Part shown: one piece after another, positions 26,632 to 57,977 of the stretch
Layout of the letters: each line of letters begins with the position of its first letter
How positions within the stretch are numbered: the first letter of the stretch is position 1
Origin: Escherichia coli
GTDB taxonomy: Bacteria; Pseudomonadota; Gammaproteobacteria; Enterobacterales; Enterobacteriaceae
Assembly: GCF_030384885.1 (NCBI RefSeq)
Contig: NZ_CP128613.1
Strand: one strand, 5' to 3'
DNA: 64,000 bases
Notes under the pieces: model-generated
The model's database searches: none
The model's input: only the letters and a program-made list of their open reading frames with translations
What the model was told of the DNA's origin: nothing
Program-made: the position numbers and the translations under genes

Positions 26632-28056
26632 ATGGATGGCATGGGATGGATGATTATTTTGGTACTTCCCTTTCTTTGGATGGGCTATGGACTGGCGTTG
26701 TTAATCATAACGGGGTGCGCTTTTGAATCTAAGAGGATTCGTCGCGTTCTGCTATGGGGTGTTGCGCCCCAGTTTATTATTCTTTGTATTACGACCTTAT
26801 TGCTTTATTGGATTAACTCTCGGTTAATTTATGTTTTTGTCTTTTTTCAGCCGGTTTTATGCATCACTACGGCAATTTTTTTGTTTGCTGGTAAAAAAAC
26901 ACAATATTCCAGATTGCTGTTTACTCTGTCTCATGTGATTTTTCTCGCTGGAGTTTTATATCAGGGGCATAGGGAAAATCTGCAACACATAATTAATAGC
27001 GACTGGAAGGAATATAAAATAACGCGTTTATTTGAGCAAGTGCAGGACAATGGAGCGCATGCGCTGAATAACGATGTAACTTGTTCAGAATTAATGCAAC
27101 TACTCACCCTGGCAGCGGAACGTGATGACGTCAAAGAAGAGACGTTACGTACTCTTATTGCAAAGAGAGTATCGCCATTTCTGACAATGTCAGATAACTG
27201 TACGGGTGAGGATTCAGTAGAGATTTATTCTGTAGATACTACACCTTTTATGGCGGCTATTCAGAATCATAATATACATTCTGTTCGTTTTTTTAGTCAA
27301 TTGCTTATGGGAAACTCACCAAAAGCAAAAAATAATCGTGACATTGTGCGCCGGGCAAACCCTTTGATCGAAGTGTATAAATATAGTCATGGTTCAAAAA
27401 AACAACGTAACTCAGGGTTAGAAATAAGTAAGCAATTAATCGCTATTATGCCAGAACTATTAACAGATGCCGTCTGGCGTGCCGTGCTCAATGTATATGA
27501 TGCCGATGCAGCACGATGGTTCTGGCGTAAGCAACCACCAGAAAATCGGTTGTATCGCTTAAAGGCTATGGCATTAATACCACAAACAGATGCGCTGTTG
27601 GCAGAGATTCGACATACTCCAGAGGTACTGAATATCTCGTCTGAGGGGGACCTGAATGAAGAGGAGTTTCTCCATTTCTTAATTTATGGAGGAGATACCG
27701 CTGTAATACATGCACTGGTTGAAAAAGGAATAGTTAACTGGCAGCACCTTATGAACATTGAGGGGTTTGATAAGGACCCCTTAATATGGTCTATTTCAAA
27801 ACTGGGAGAAAACGACAATGACCGGGAGGTTTTGGCATTAATTATTCATGATATTAATGCGCAAAACGCACTGCCGGAGGAACGCATTGCCAAATATTTA
27901 ACGTGGACGGGAGCAATGGGCGAGATTTTTTTAAAGGCGGGCGTACATTGTGATAAGTTATATGCGGCAATTGAGTCCGACAAAAAGCGAAATAATGGCA
28001 TGTATAGTCAAAACGCCAGGGAAGAAGTGGATCGCGTATGTACGCCCACAAAATAG
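26632..28056 (+). CDS. Accessory membrane-anchored ankyrin-repeat protein (about 4 N-terminal TM helices plus a roughly 370-aa soluble domain); function unknown
   Basis: 474-aa ORF; RBS aagga 6 nt upstream of the ATG. Hydrophobic segments at roughly residues 6-30, 39-62, 65-86 and 95-110. C-terminal ankyrin-like repeats (EFLHFLIYGGDTAVIHALVEKGIVNWQ; DPLIWSISKLGEN...VLALIIHDINAQNA). Markedly AT-rich by eye. Not part of the K-12 ftsP-ygiQ junction as I recall it. Confidence 0.75.
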   Translation: MDGMGWMIILVLPFLWMGYGLALLIITGCAFESKRIRRVLLWGVAPQFIILCITTLLLYWINSRLIYVFVFFQPVLCITTAIFLFAGKKTQYSRLLFTLSHVIFLAGVLYQGHRENLQHIINSDWKEYKITRLFEQVQDNGAHALNNDVTCSELMQLLTLAAERDDVKEETLRTLIAKRVSPFLTMSDNCTGEDSVEIYSVDTTPFMAAIQNHNIHSVRFFSQLLMGNSPKAKNNRDIVRRANPLIEVYKYSHGSKKQRNSGLEISKQLIAIMPELLTDAVWRAVLNVYDADAARWFWRKQPPENRLYRLKAMALIPQTDALLAEIRHTPEVLNISSEGDLNEEEFLHFLIYGGDTAVIHALVEKGIVNWQHLMNIEGFDKDPLIWSISKLGENDNDREVLALIIHDINAQNALPEERIAKYLTWTGAMGEIFLKAGVHCDKLYAAIESDKKRNNGMYSQNAREEVDRVCTPTK

Positions 28057-28185
28057 GAGCAGTTTGGGGCGGTTAAGGGATAAAAAATAAATGCCTTTCG
28101 CTATCTGTCAGGGCGAATCTCACCATTTGCTATACCTTCCATTGGCGATGAACAGTATTCTACCCGCACTTTTTTTACGATTGCG

Positions 28186-28992
28186 TTGAAGCATTACAAC
28201 GCCCGCGCCATCCGCGCGTTTAGCCGCTTTCTGCAAGGAAATTCCTCAAAAGCGCAGGAATATCGCGCGATTGTTCATCAAAAAAATCCACTGCAGCAGA
28301 TGTACCGGGGAATAAGTTTGCCAATTCGTTTTAGTGAAGAAGAGATCGCCCGCCACATTGTTGCCGCTCGCGAGATAAGCCTCACCTTGCTGCCCCTGAT
28401 GCCAGAATTATTAAACGAAGAGGCGTATGCAAATGTCATTGATGCTAATGACAGCGCAACGCTGAAGGCTTTTTGGCAGATCCAGCTGCCGCCCACGCCG
28501 GTTTTACGCCTGGAAGCGATGTCGGTAATTCCCATGACAGCGGCACTGGTTCAACAGGTGAGGGAGTCACCAAAGCGGCTTGAACTGGAAGATAAAAGTG
28601 GCAGGACAGTACTAACTTACATCGTGCGCTTTGGGAATATTGCCGCAGTACAGGCACTGATTGACGCTAATCTGATCGACTGGCAACGGCTCCGCCAATC
28701 GACAGGAAGGTCAACACCATTATTACTGGCGATCTGGCGACAAAAATACGACGATGATTATGTAATCTTCCCATTGATTTTAAAGGACATGCTGGCAAAA
28801 AATGCGCCACCCTCAGCAGAGGAAATAATGAACTGCATTAAGGATGGTATGACCGCAGATGATTTTTTATCTGCCGGAATGAGCAACACGCAATTCTGTT
28901 CTGCGATTGAACAAAGCCTCCAGGCGAAAACGTCAGTATTACCGGCGAATCGATTACGCCATCTGCAATCCTCGCGGTGTGCAAAGCTGTAA
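28186..28992 (+). CDS. 5'-truncated paralog of the preceding ankyrin-repeat protein (soluble domain only); may be a gene remnant or pseudogene
   Basis: 268-aa ORF starting at a TTG with no obvious RBS. Aligns along its whole length to residues about 205-460 of the upstream protein (RAFSRFLQGNSSKAQ vs RFFSQLLMGNSPKAK; VLRLEAMSVIPMTAALVQQVRESPK vs RLYRLKAMALIPQTDALLAEIRHTPE; GRTVLTYIVRFGNIAAVQALIDANLIDWQ vs EEFLHFLIYGGDTAVIHALVEKGIVNWQ). In-frame homology continues upstream of the TTG back to a stop at about 28081. Confidence 0.55.
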   Translation: MKHYNARAIRAFSRFLQGNSSKAQEYRAIVHQKNPLQQMYRGISLPIRFSEEEIARHIVAAREISLTLLPLMPELLNEEAYANVIDANDSATLKAFWQIQLPPTPVLRLEAMSVIPMTAALVQQVRESPKRLELEDKSGRTVLTYIVRFGNIAAVQALIDANLIDWQRLRQSTGRSTPLLLAIWRQKYDDDYVIFPLILKDMLAKNAPPSAEEIMNCIKDGMTADDFLSAGMSNTQFCSAIEQSLQAKTSVLPANRLRHLQSSRCAKL

Positions 28993-41446: not shown

Positions 41447-42487
41447 TCATTTATCGGAAGACGCCTGCCACAGATTCAGCTCGCCATCGGCGATATGCTG
41501 ATCAATCTGCGCCAGCTCCTCGGTGCTAAATGTCAGATTATTCAGCGCCTGCACGTTCTCCTCAAGTTGCTCCGCGCGGCTGGCACCAATCAATACCGAC
41601 GTCACTCGCTCATCTTTCAGCAACCAGCTTAACGCCATTTGTGCCATTGATTGTCCACGCTGCTGTGCCATTTCATTCAATAACCGCAGGCTGTTGAGGT
41701 TGGCTTCGGTGAGCATTTTCGGCGTCAGGCCACGAACTTTATTCCCTTCACGATGCATCCGTGAATCTTGCGGAATACCGTTGAGATATTTTCCGGTCAG
41801 CAATCCCTGAGCCAGAGGAGTAAAGGCAATGCAGCCCACGCCGTTATGTTGCAGGGTATCCAGCAGGCCGCTTTTATCCACCCAGCGGTTCAGTAAATTG
41901 TATGAAGGTTGATGAATTAACAGCGGAATTTTCCATTCGTGCAGCAACTCGACCATTTTTTGCGTCCGCTCTGGCGAGTAAGAGGAGATCCCGACATAAA
42001 GCGCCTTACCGCTTTGTACCGCATGAGCCAGCGCAGAGGCGGTTTCTTCCATCGGCGTATTTTCATCGACGCGATGAGAGTAAAAGATATCGACATACTC
42101 CAGCCCCATACGCTTCAGGCTTTGGTCGAGGCTGGCGAGCATGTATTTACGTGAGCCGCCAGAGCCGTACGGGCCGGGCCACATATCGTAGCCAGCTTTG
42201 GTAGAGATAATCAGTTCATCGCGATAAGCGGCAAAATCCTCCCGCAGCAGGCGACCAAAGTTCTCTTCTGCGCTTCCTGGAGGCGGCCCGTAATTGTTGG
42301 CTAAATCAAAGTGCGTAATGCCCAAATCAAACGCTTTGCGCAGGATCGCACGCTGTGATTCCAGTGCGTTAACGTGACCGAAATTGTGCCATAAACCGAG
42401 CGATAACGCGGGCAGGCGTAAACCGCTTTTTCCGCAATAGCGGTATTGCATCTGCCCGTAACGTTCGGGATTCGCTAACCAGACCAT
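41447..42487 (-). CDS. yghZ: Aldo-keto reductase YghZ (L-glyceraldehyde 3-phosphate reductase)
   Basis: 346 aa from the internal Met MVWLANPERYGQMQYRYCGKSGLRLPALSLGLW. Confidence 0.92.
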   Translation of the reverse strand: MVWLANPERYGQMQYRYCGKSGLRLPALSLGLWHNFGHVNALESQRAILRKAFDLGITHFDLANNYGPPPGSAEENFGRLLREDFAAYRDELIISTKAGYDMWPGPYGSGGSRKYMLASLDQSLKRMGLEYVDIFYSHRVDENTPMEETASALAHAVQSGKALYVGISSYSPERTQKMVELLHEWKIPLLIHQPSYNLLNRWVDKSGLLDTLQHNGVGCIAFTPLAQGLLTGKYLNGIPQDSRMHREGNKVRGLTPKMLTEANLNSLRLLNEMAQQRGQSMAQMALSWLLKDERVTSVLIGASRAEQLEENVQALNNLTFSTEELAQIDQHIADGELNLWQASSDK

Positions 42488-42640
42488 GACCTCTCCTTTC
42501 CACCATTCAATTTCGAAACAATGTTTCCAGTTTAGCGATTTACCAGGGGGGATCCCGTAGCATCGCTCACAGTGTGACGAAAAACTGGGCAAAAACACGT
42601 GCTTATGCTTTGCTTAAAAAAACACCAATTGAGGAGTACA

Positions 42641-43531
42641 ATGATGCCGCGTCTGACCGCTAAAGATTTCCCACAAGAGTTGCTGGATTACTACGACTAT
42701 TACGCTCACGGGAAAATTTCGAAACGTGAGTTCCTCAACCTTGCGGCGAAGTATGCGGTGGGCGGGATGACGGCATTAGCGTTGTTTGATTTGCTCAAGC
42801 CAAATTATGCGCTGGCGACTCAGGTAGAGTTTACCGACCCGGAAATTGTTGCTGAGTACATCACGTATTCTTCGCCAAATGGTCACGGCGAGGTACGGGG
42901 TTATCTGGTGAAGCCCGCAAAGATGAGCGGCAAAACGCCAGCTGTGGTGGTGGTGCATGAGAATCGTGGACTGAATCCGTATATCGAAGATGTGGCACGG
43001 CGAGTAGCGAAGGCGGGGTATATCGCCCTGGCACCTGACGGCTTAAGTTCCGTTGGAGGTTATCCGGGTAATGATGATAAAGGTCGTGAGCTGCAACAGC
43101 AGGTTGATCCAACCAAACTGATGAATGATTTCTTTGCCGCAATTGAGTTTATGCAACGCTATCCGCAAGCGACAGGCAAAGTGGGTATTACCGGATTTTG
43201 CTATGGCGGTGGTGTATCGAACGCGGCGGCTGTCGCGTATCCGGAACTGGCCTGCGCGGTGCCGTTTTATGGTCGTCAGGCACCCACTGCCGATGTGGCG
43301 AAGATTGAAGCGCCTTTACTGCTCCACTACGCGGAACTGGATACCCGAATCAACGAGGGCTGGCCCGCTTACGAGGCGGCGTTGAAAGCCAATAATAAGG
43401 TCTATGAGGCGTATATCTATCCGGGGGTTAATCACGGATTCCATAATGATTCCACGCCCCGTTATGACAAATCTGCCGCCGATCTTGCCTGGCAAAGGAC
43501 GCTGAAATGGTTCGATAAATATCTCTCCTGA
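42641..43531 (+). CDS. yghX: Dienelactone hydrolase family protein (YghX), apparently intact
   Basis: About 296 aa from MMPRLTAKDF...; uninterrupted alpha/beta hydrolase ORF. Start is uncertain; the ORF-track start is 42599. Confidence 0.7.
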   Translation: MMPRLTAKDFPQELLDYYDYYAHGKISKREFLNLAAKYAVGGMTALALFDLLKPNYALATQVEFTDPEIVAEYITYSSPNGHGEVRGYLVKPAKMSGKTPAVVVVHENRGLNPYIEDVARRVAKAGYIALAPDGLSSVGGYPGNDDKGRELQQQVDPTKLMNDFFAAIEFMQRYPQATGKVGITGFCYGGGVSNAAAVAYPELACAVPFYGRQAPTADVAKIEAPLLLHYAELDTRINEGWPAYEAALKANNKVYEAYIYPGVNHGFHNDSTPRYDKSAADLAWQRTLKWFDKYLS

Positions 43532-43649
43532 TAGGTTTATCTCTTACGGGATTACGTCTTAAACAAGCATGAAAAAATAGCGTGCGCAAAAGTCGTTCTT
43601 TGCCTAAAATATCGCTATATATGACAATATATAGCGAATGAGGTGAACG

Positions 43650-43937
43650 ATGAATAACCATTTTGGTAAAGGCTTAATGGCGGGATTAAAAGCAACGCAT
43701 GCCGACAGTGCGGTTAATGTGACAAAATACTGTGCCGATTATAAACGCGGTTTTGTATTAGGCTACTCACACCGGATGTACGAAAAGACCGGAGATCGCC
43801 AGCTTAGCGCCTGGGAAGCGGGGATTCTGACGCGCCGCTATGGACTGGATAAAGAGATGGTAATGGATTTCTTTCGTGAGAATAATTCCTGTTCTACGTT
43901 GCGCTTTTTTATGGCCGGTTATCGCCTCGAAAATTGA
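43650..43937 (+). CDS. yghW: DUF2623 protein YghW
   Basis: 95 aa; directly upstream of the hyb operon. Confidence 0.85.
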
Positions 43938-44125
43938 TCAAACATACGTATTATCTTGCTTTAATTAATTACACTAATGCTTATTCCCTTCGTTTTAGTG
44001 CCCCGCCGCAGTATCATGATATCGATAACCATAATAAATGTGTGGTAAATGGCGCATCGATCGCATTATTGATTTTGCGATTGAGGCAAAATATATGCCA
44101 GGTCTTCGCAACGGAATAACTATAA

Positions 44126-45244
44126 ATGACTGGAGATAACACCCTCATCCATTCTCACGGCATTAACCGTCGTGATTTCATGAAGCTTTGTGCAGCATTA
44201 GCCGCCACCATGGGGTTAAGTAGCAAAGCCGCTGCAGAAATGGCCGAATCGGTTACTAACCCGCAGCGTCCGCCAGTTATCTGGATTGGCGCGCAGGAGT
44301 GCACCGGTTGTACGGAATCTCTGCTTCGTGCAACGCATCCAACGGTAGAAAACCTCGTGCTGGAGACTATCTCTCTCGAGTATCACGAAGTGCTTTCCGC
44401 CGCCTTCGGTCATCAGGTCGAAGAGAACAAACATAACGCTCTCGAGAAGTACAAAGGGCAGTATGTGTTAGTGGTGGATGGTTCCATCCCATTAAAAGAT
44501 AATGGTATTTATTGCATGGTTGCCGGTGAGCCGATTGTGGATCACATCCGCAAAGCGGCGGAAGGCGCAGCAGCCATTATCGCTATCGGTTCCTGCTCTG
44601 CGTGGGGCGGTGTTGCCGCAGCTGGAGTTAACCCAACTGGCGCTGTCAGCCTGCAAGAAGTTCTGCCGGGCAAAACCGTTATCAACATTCCGGGCTGCCC
44701 ACCGAACCCGCACAACTTCCTCGCGACCGTTGCGCACATCATCACTTACGGCAAACCGCCGAAACTGGATGACAAAAACCGTCCGACTTTCGCCTATGGC
44801 CGTCTGATTCACGAACACTGCGAACGCCGCCCGCACTTCGATGCTGGTCGTTTTGCCAAAGAGTTCGGTGATGAAGGCCACCGCGAAGGCTGGTGCCTGT
44901 ACCACCTCGGCTGTAAAGGGCCAGAAACTTACGGCAACTGCTCAACGCTGCAATTCTGCGACGTTGGTGGCGTGTGGCCGGTGGCGATTGGTCACCCGTG
45001 CTATGGCTGTAACGAAGAAGGTATCGGCTTCCATAAAGGCATCCATCAGCTTGCCAACGTCGAAAACCAGACTCCGCGTTCGCAGAAACCGGATGTTAAC
45101 GCTAAAGAGGGCGGCAACGTCTCTGCGGGCGCTATCGGTTTGCTCGGCGGTGTGGTTGGGCTGGTTGCCGGTGTCAGCGTGATGGCGGTGCGTGAACTGG
45201 GTCGTCAGCAAAAGAAAGATAACGCTGACTCACGGGGAGAATAA
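44126..45244 (+). CDS. hybO: Hydrogenase 2 small subunit HybO
   Basis: 372 aa; Tat signal [16 protein letters not shown]; NiFe hydrogenase small-subunit Cys clusters. Confidence 0.95.
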
Positions 45245-57173: not shown

Positions 57174-57932
57174 ATGGATGCACTACAAACACAAACTGTT
57201 AATAGTACAACCGCGCCGCAGCCCAACTACATTCCGGGGCTGATTGCGGTGGTCGGGTGTGATGGCACCGGTAAATCCACACTGACCACTGACCTGGTGA
57301 AATCGCTGCAACAACACTGGCAAACCGAGCGCCGCTATCTGGGGCTGCTCTCCGGCGAAGACGGCGACAAAATCAAACGGTTGCCGCTCGTTGGCGTCTG
57401 GCTGGAACGGCGACTGGCGGCCAAATCCTCGAAAACCCAAAGCATGAAAACCAAATCTCCGGCGCTATGGGCGGCGGTGATTATGTACTGCTTCTCGCTG
57501 CGAAGAATGGTGAATCTACGCAAGGTTCAGCGACTGGCGCAAAGTGGCGTTCTGGTGGTCAGCGATCGCTTCCCGCAGGCTGAAATTTCGGGCTTTTATT
57601 ATGACGGACCGGGGATTGGCGTCGAGCGTGCGACCGGGAAAATCAGCATGTTTCTGGCACAGCGCGAACGGCGTTTATACCAAAAAATGGCGCAATACCG
57701 TCCTGAATTAATTATTCGTTTGGGGATTGATATTGATACTGCCATCTCCCGCAAGCCTGACCATGACTATGCCGAGCTGCAGGACAAAATCGGTGTCATG
57801 TCGACGATTGGCTATAACGGCACAAAAATTCTTGAGATTGATTCCAGAGCGCCCTACAGCGAAGTGCTGGAACAGGCACAGAAGGCGGTTTCTCTGGTTG
57901 CAATCGTTTCTGACCGCCGAAGTTTAACTTAA
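57174..57932 (+). CDS. yghR: P-loop ATP-binding protein YghR
   Basis: 252 aa; Walker A GCDGTGKST. Confidence 0.9.
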   Translation: MDALQTQTVNSTTAPQPNYIPGLIAVVGCDGTGKSTLTTDLVKSLQQHWQTERRYLGLLSGEDGDKIKRLPLVGVWLERRLAAKSSKTQSMKTKSPALWAAVIMYCFSLRRMVNLRKVQRLAQSGVLVVSDRFPQAEISGFYYDGPGIGVERATGKISMFLAQRERRLYQKMAQYRPELIIRLGIDIDTAISRKPDHDYAELQDKIGVMSTIGYNGTKILEIDSRAPYSEVLEQAQKAVSLVAIVSDRRSLT

Positions 57933-57977
57933 GGTTGGCGGGATACTTTTTACTATCAACGATAAGGTCAGGCTGAA

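Follow-up and report, generated by a model that had tools for sequence, protein, structure and literature searches.

The intact, ancestral form of Escherichia coli yghX, a gene for a predicted dienelactone hydrolase-family enzyme, and its probable two-step inactivation in K-12

In Escherichia coli K-12 MG1655, yghX (b4658) is annotated as a pseudogene, and a separate 47-codon gene, yqhI (b4755), is annotated over its 5' end. This arrangement raises three questions: what the unbroken gene encodes, how it was broken in K-12, and what the small protein YqhI represents. Here, they are addressed with a 64,000-nt stretch of another E. coli chromosome (RefSeq assembly GCF_030384885.1, contig NZ_CP128613.1), referred to below as the window. 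A preliminary description of the window reported a continuous α/β hydrolase ORF of about 296-310 aa between yghZ and yghW, described yghX as a frameshifted pseudogene in K-12, and suggested that the window carries the functional ancestral allele. The ORF proves to have been described correctly in its coordinates, size and neighbors. Our main reading, to which we give a probability of about 0.93, is that 42644..43531 is the intact ancestral yghX, that it encodes a 295-aa DLH-family hydrolase with a predicted Cys186-His264-Asp233 triad, and that the K-12 gene was inactivated in two steps; for the protein, we infer ester, lactone or thioester hydrolysis and a Tat-type signal.

The program-made ORF list of the window holds a continuous plus-strand ORF at 42599..43531, which opens with GTG and spans 310 aa; in-frame ATG codons at 42641 and 42644 would yield proteins of 296 and 295 aa, respectively. 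The start is most likely the ATG at 42644, a placement made because this codon lies 7 nt downstream of a GAGGAG element (Table 1), because K-12 retains an ATG there but has ACG at 42641-42643, because the match to the NCBIfam model begins with the third residue of the 295-aa product, and because the RefSeq CDS in the near-identical E. coli 2013C-4282 is exactly 42644..43531. Upstream lies gpr (= yghZ; 41447..42487, minus strand) and downstream yghW (43650..43937, plus strand), followed by hybOABCDE; the gene order gpr-yghX-yghW by the hyb operon is the same as in K-12 and is the position expected of the yghX family. The neighbors gpr, yqhA, yghW and hybOABCDE give no pathway context. Features of the gene are collected in Table 1.

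Table 1. Coordinates of yghX features in the window (position 1 is the first base of the 64,000-nt stretch)
Feature	Coordinates	Strand	Basis or remark
yghX coding sequence, intact allele	42644..43531	+	295 aa plus stop; ORF, RefSeq CDS, NCBIfam YghX, Pfam DLH
In-frame upstream extension of the ORF (GTG 42599, ATG 42641)	42599..42643	+	Probably untranslated
Shine-Dalgarno-like GAGGAG, 7 nt before ATG 42644	42631..42636	+	Read from sequence; conserved in K-12
Residues 1-58, predicted Tat-type signal peptide	42644..42817	+	Homolog alignment, motif census, 4ZV9 construct; export predicted
Residues 1-36, Pfam YqhI-like module (PF23678)	42644..42751	+	E = 1.5e-21; in K-12, still translated as the N-terminal 36 residues of YqhI
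S26-K-R-E-F-L31, Lys-Arg variant of the twin-arginine motif	42719..42736	+	Homolog alignment, motif census
TA of codon Tyr37, present in the window, deleted in K-12 (first, primary frameshift)	42752..42753	+	Nucleotide alignment
A56-L57-A58, predicted signal peptidase I site (AxA)	42809..42817	+	AxA, with variable middle residue, recurs there in many homologs; predicted
Glu106 in motif H-E-N-R-G	42959..42961	+	Aligns with Glu36 of Pseudomonas dienelactone hydrolase (ClcD variant, PDB 4U2C)
CC of codon Thr157 (ACC); one C missing in K-12 (second frameshift)	43113..43114	+	Nucleotide alignment
Nucleophile elbow G184-F-C186-Y-G188; Cys186 codon 43199-43201	43193..43207	+	Homolog conservation, ClcD alignment
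Asp233, triad acid	43340..43342	+	Invariant in 29 homologs; aligns with Asp171 of ClcD
His264, triad base	43433..43435	+	Nearly invariant; aligns with His202 of ClcD

The 295-aa protein matches the NCBIfam model "YghX family hydrolase" (NF041440) over its entire length (model positions 1-292 of 292) at 586.3 bits (cut-off 460). It also matches the Pfam dienelactone hydrolase family, DLH (PF01738), over model positions 1-217 of 217 at 164.6 bits, where the gathering score is 21 (E = 3e-48). With such scores, a chance ORF is ruled out. In an alignment of the window YghX with 28 homologs (36-68% identity), G184, G188, G189 and D233 are invariant, and C186, H264, H105, G109 and R119 are nearly so. 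HMMER alignment to the Pseudomonas ClcD variant (PDB 4U2C) places C186, D233, H264 and E106 on ClcD residues 123, 171, 202 and 36, respectively. YghX thus has the triad of the DLH family: the nucleophilic Cys sits in a G-x-C-x-G elbow, and His and Asp complete the set. With the triad residues and the Glu36 equivalent aligned to ClcD, the window gene encodes a complete predicted set of catalytic residues for a dienelactone hydrolase of the cysteine type.

The fold agrees with the family assignment. An AlphaFold2 model built on the homolog alignment has a mean pLDDT of 96.5; Foldseek matches it to ClcD (PDB 1DIN) with E = 8e-17 and a target-normalized TM-score of 0.83, and it superimposes on PDB 4ZV9 with 0.5 Å rmsd at 98% sequence identity. 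The 4ZV9 entry, released in 2015 as an "uncharacterized protein", is YghX of E. coli O157:H7 str. Sakai, the product of the same gene; it is 98% identical to the window protein over residues 59-294, and S76, V69 and Y229 of the window protein, which are Pro, Phe and Phe in Sakai, are among the few substitutions. Pseudomonas ClcD is a far more distant relative: it shares with YghX the α/β-hydrolase fold, the triad and the Glu36 equivalent but only 24-27% identity, and, unlike YghX, it is a 236-aa cytoplasmic enzyme that has no N-terminal extension.

By analogy with the family, His264 and Asp233 would activate Cys186 for attack on the carbonyl of an ester, lactone or thioester, and the acyl-enzyme formed on Cys186 would then be hydrolyzed. 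The gene for ClcD lies in an operon for chlorocatechol degradation, but no genes for catechol cleavage or muconate cycloisomerase, as would go with a ClcD-type enzyme of the chlorocatechol or β-ketoadipate route, stand beside yghX; since yghX lies outside a chloroaromatic degradation cluster, dienelactone is not taken as the physiological substrate of YghX. The literature that was searched yielded no data on the substrate or localization of YghX or on any activity of the protein, carboxymethylenebutenolidase activity (EC 3.1.1.45) included.

How was the gene broken in K-12? The two loci share synteny, start codon and ribosome-binding site, and the nucleotide alignment that the preliminary description had proposed for locating the frameshift gives 97% identity with exactly two indels. 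The deletions took TA out of codon 37 and one C out of codon 157, and K-12 yghX measures 885 nt vs 888 nt in the window; the K-12 copy is therefore neither intact nor equal in length, and its pseudogene status is borne out both by the MG1655 annotation and by the two deletions themselves. Both deletion sites are intact in the window, which does not carry the K-12-type pseudogene allele. Translation of K-12 yghX gives 36 native residues followed by CGRRDDGISVV and a stop, a 47-aa peptide identical to YqhI and the only product that K-12 makes from the gene; YqhI has been detected in K-12 by chromosomal epitope tagging (VanOrsdel et al., PMC6001520). We take YqhI to be what the frameshift has left of a probable export signal, not the product of an independent small-protein gene. 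Sequencing errors as the source of the K-12 frameshifts are ruled out by the recurrence of the same junctions in about 1,200 independent assemblies.

The frequencies of the alleles were determined in 5,426 complete E. coli genomes using short junction-specific queries, each unable to seed on the other allele. The yghX locus was found in 5,425 of these genomes. The K-12-type 2-bp deletion junction is present in 1,251 genomes (23%) and the 1-bp deletion junction in 1,199 (22%), shares that are pushed up by the large number of laboratory K-12 derivatives in the collection; the intact second-site junction is present in 4,221 (78%). The second site provides the reliable count, with 4,221 and 1,199 adding up to 5,420 of 5,425. 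At the first site, the intact junction matched 3,631 genomes, which together with the 1,251 deleted ones leaves about 540 unaccounted for, a shortfall that probably comes from nearby SNPs breaking the 28-nt megablast seed.

Besides ETEC H10407, natural isolates from swine, chicken, dog, humans and river water have the K-12 allele, which therefore occurs in nature and did not arise in the laboratory. On the K-12 haplotype of strain VG1046-3E9, only the 2-bp deletion is present: the C at the second site is kept, and PGAP flags a frameshift. This intermediate fits an order of events in which a 2-bp deletion in codon 37 would have cut translation to the 47-aa YqhI, and the 1-bp deletion in codon 157 would have arisen later, within the 2-bp-deletion lineage. 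In strain EH08-18-36, yghX was lost separately, through an IS1 insertion.

Outside E. coli, full-length orthologs of 294-299 aa (85-92% identity) are found in Citrobacter koseri, Pseudescherichia, Enterobacter, Kosakonia, Leclercia and Silvania. The window yghX was also compared with a repaired K-12 yghX, i.e., the K-12 sequence with the three missing bases re-inserted; the two differ by 17 synonymous and 2 non-synonymous substitutions, and the resulting dN/dS of 0.034 indicates that the gene has evolved under strong purifying selection. The loss in K-12 is judged to be recent because the K-12 allele has gained almost no further damage. Together, the full-length orthologs in other genera, the low dN/dS, the presence of the locus in nearly every genome and the predominance of genomes intact at the second site identify the intact gene as the ancestral allele, as the preliminary description had suggested.

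Two readings would change the meaning of this comparison. In one, the K-12 frameshifts are bypassed, so that a full-length protein is made and the two alleles are functionally equivalent: deletions of 2 and 1 bp sum to one codon, and the original frame returns after codon 157. This can be practically discounted. Between the two sites, the K-12 frame contains nine stops, including that of YqhI; the 47-aa YqhI is what has been detected; out-of-frame sequence would take the place of residues 37-157, Glu106 included; and the existence of the 2-bp-only allele means that the second deletion was a later, independent event. The K-12 frame is not rescued, because of the nine stops, and the 3-bp sum is coincidental; a programmed or compensating frameshift (-2 then -1) is ruled out by the same stops together with the single-deletion intermediate. 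In the other reading, yghX is intact in sequence in the present strain yet silent or decaying. Sigma-70 sites upstream of the gene are no more numerous than expected by chance (4 vs 3.2), and E. coli has lost yghX repeatedly, through K-12-type deletions (about 23% of genomes) and the IS1 insertion in EH08-18-36, but the dN/dS value speaks for long-term purifying selection, the catalytic residues are all conserved, YqhI synthesis from the same start region is detectable in K-12 (PMC6001520), and yghX transcripts have been measured there by RNA-seq (PMC9746237), making a silent or decaying gene very improbable.

The N-terminal 58 residues set YghX apart from ClcD. They comprise an acidic/aromatic conserved n-region, DFPQELLDYYDYYAHG, the motif S-K-R-E-F-L, the Ala/Gly/Thr/Leu-rich segment AAKYAVGGMTALALFDLL, and K-P-N-Y-A-L-A, after which the protein continues with QVEFTDP. 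The motif, S-K-R-E-F-L-N, is to be compared with the Tat consensus S/T-R-R-x-F-L-K; in a census of 89 motif-bearing homolog cluster representatives, 74 have RR and 12 have KR at this point. The segment that follows has a best 15-residue Kyte-Doolittle mean of 1.55 and, with the AxA site at its end, gives the window YghX the moderately hydrophobic h-region and predicted cleavage site typical of Tat signals. Across the homologs, this segment varies freely while staying small and hydrophobic, and AxA recurs at its end. The n-region extends over 26 residues up to KR and stands out by its length and its conservation; the PF23678 YqhI-like module to which it belongs is found in 25 of the 29 aligned homologs.

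Profile searches contribute little to this assignment: the window YghX has no match to the TAT profiles TIGR01409 and PF10518, the Pfam TAT_signal model matches none of the 29 homologs, TIGR01409 gives weak matches in 5 of 29 (best E = 0.004), and a formate dehydrogenase TAT model is matched by two. With profile matches absent or weak, the Tat reading is based on the motif and the architecture. Variants with KR can be Tat-competent, as documented for the natural Salmonella TtrB and for SufI and TorA mutants (PMC1182353). TtrB is a close parallel, having KR for RR in an otherwise Tat-like signal, as in YghX; however, experiments have shown that TtrB, a redox subunit that contains a cofactor, depends on Tat, whereas the export of YghX is predicted, and the n-region of YghX is longer than that of TtrB and conserved. 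Residues 1-58 would thus form a Tat-type signal that is cut after A-L-A58 to release a periplasmic mature enzyme, and we regard YghX, with moderate confidence, as a predicted Tat-exported periplasmic hydrolase.

The modeled structure of the same residues invites a different interpretation. Cleaved signal peptides are usually modeled with low confidence. In YghX, AlphaFold2 builds three helices (11-21, 27-37 and 44-51), and residues 1-60 (window 42644-42823) have pLDDT ≥ 90; such confidence is out of the ordinary for a signal peptide that is removed, and the N-terminus could instead be a retained structural element. The N-terminal 58 residues might then be no export signal at all but a set of conserved helices that serve as a cap or lid on the catalytic domain of a cytoplasmic enzyme. 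The YqhI-like module is more conserved than typical signal-peptide n-regions, and the window protein has KR instead of RR and lacks a TAT_signal HMM match; the long conserved n-region, the absent TAT match and the high pLDDT would fit either a retained cap or a signal peptide packed on the folded precursor. Against a cap stand the RR-x-F/L-L motif at the aligned position in 74 of the 89 motif-bearing representatives, the freely varying low-complexity Ala/Gly/Ser/Thr/Leu stretch that leads to A-x-A, a pattern of Tat signals and not of a packed helix, and the homolog matches to TIGR01409 (five) and to the formate dehydrogenase model (two). In addition, the catalytic domain was crystallized alone: the 4ZV9 construct omits the N-terminal ~59 residues and starts at about residue 60, just past the predicted cleavage site. 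On balance, a cytoplasmic enzyme with a permanent cap seems less likely, and the Tat-type signal peptide is the reading that we retain.

If residues 1-58 are indeed such a signal, the n-region might bind a chaperone or keep the enzyme inactive until export. The K-12 YqhI would be the orphaned first 36 residues of what is a probable KR-type Tat signal peptide of YghX. A bolder proposal, which we advance tentatively and at slightly less than even odds, is that YghX, with KR as its natural motif and a conserved, functional 26-residue n-region, is a Tat substrate of E. coli that was overlooked because K-12 is without it. Among the literature titles and abstracts searched, none links a dienelactone hydrolase with twin-arginine export.

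That intact yghX exists is already known from the pseudogene annotation in K-12, the NCBIfam model, routine RefSeq annotation, the O157:H7 structure and the widespread use of the locus for integration in K-12. In W3110, yghX has served as a neutral pseudogene integration site (PMC7677707); among the papers examined that mention the gene, none reports a function, and yghX serves there for integration into K-12, is listed as a "hydrolase fragment" or figures among differentially expressed genes. The present analysis adds the exact lesions and their order, their population frequencies and the interpretation of YqhI as the remnant of a probable KR-type Tat signal. Since K-12 is atypical at this locus, work in K-12 cannot reveal the function of YghX, and, in most other E. 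coli backgrounds, the use of yghX as a "neutral" integration site would disrupt an intact gene that is under selection. Should the Tat prediction hold true, YghX would add a member with a natural KR motif to the known Tat substrates of E. coli.

The regulation of yghX can be approached from the flanking DNA and from expression data. A scan of 42300-44200 for promoters and terminators returned counts at the chance level (4 vs 3.2 and 3 vs 1.9), and the sole plus-strand site upstream of yghX overlaps the start codon, so that no yghX promoter is assigned. The genes gadA, gadB, aldB, fbaB and tktB form a largely RpoS-dependent set. In K-12 RNA-seq, the yghX transcript dropped along with those of these five genes (PMC9746237), a hint that yghX could belong to the stationary-phase genes.

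The gap between yghX and yghW contains a perfect palindrome at 43612-43637, with 11-bp arms and a 4-nt center (TCGCTATATAT-TGTC-ATATATAGCGA, minus strand), which is identical in K-12. The promoter of yghW, TTGCCT-17-GACAAT (43601-43629), which PMC3946193 lists among constitutive RpoD promoters, is covered by the palindrome at its spacer and -10 element. The palindrome looks like a putative operator.

The window as a whole is the same as NZ_CP027579.1 (4308853-4372852) of E. coli 2013C-4282, isolated from human stool in the USA, save for 9 single-base differences and a G7/G6 indel. At the yghX locus, at least 99% identity to the window is seen in only 18 of 5,425 genomes, most being at about 97%; with so few close matches, the strain belongs to an uncommon lineage. 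The indel falls into a seven-G run (61028-61034) inside an ORF for an LptF-like paralog (60753..61823, 356 aa, Pfam LptF_LptG 1.9e-55), which is intact here; the 2013C-4282 copy has six G and is flagged as "frameshifted" by RefSeq. Either an assembly is in error at this homopolymer, or slippage in the run switches the gene on and off.

The LptF-like paralog belongs to a gene cluster downstream of yghS/yghT (57174-64000), with thymidylate-kinase-like and polysaccharide-flippase-like genes, a 274-aa ORF that has no Pfam match, a YtfJ-family gene and a second LptF/LptG pair; the cluster ends in a PLP-dependent enzyme named "serine palmitoyltransferase" by RefSeq. For E. coli, this would be an unusual combination of lipid synthesis and export genes. 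Between ftsP and ygiQ (26632-28992), two ORFs of 474 and 224 aa have only sub-threshold ankyrin-repeat matches; RefSeq calls them a hypothetical protein and an ankyrin-repeat protein. At the window start (1-4625) lies a chaperone-usher fimbrial operon. The first 1,400 bases of the window have any match in 993 of 5,426 complete genomes, and the best match besides 2013C-4282 is 89.6% identical, so the operon is a rare, divergent variant.
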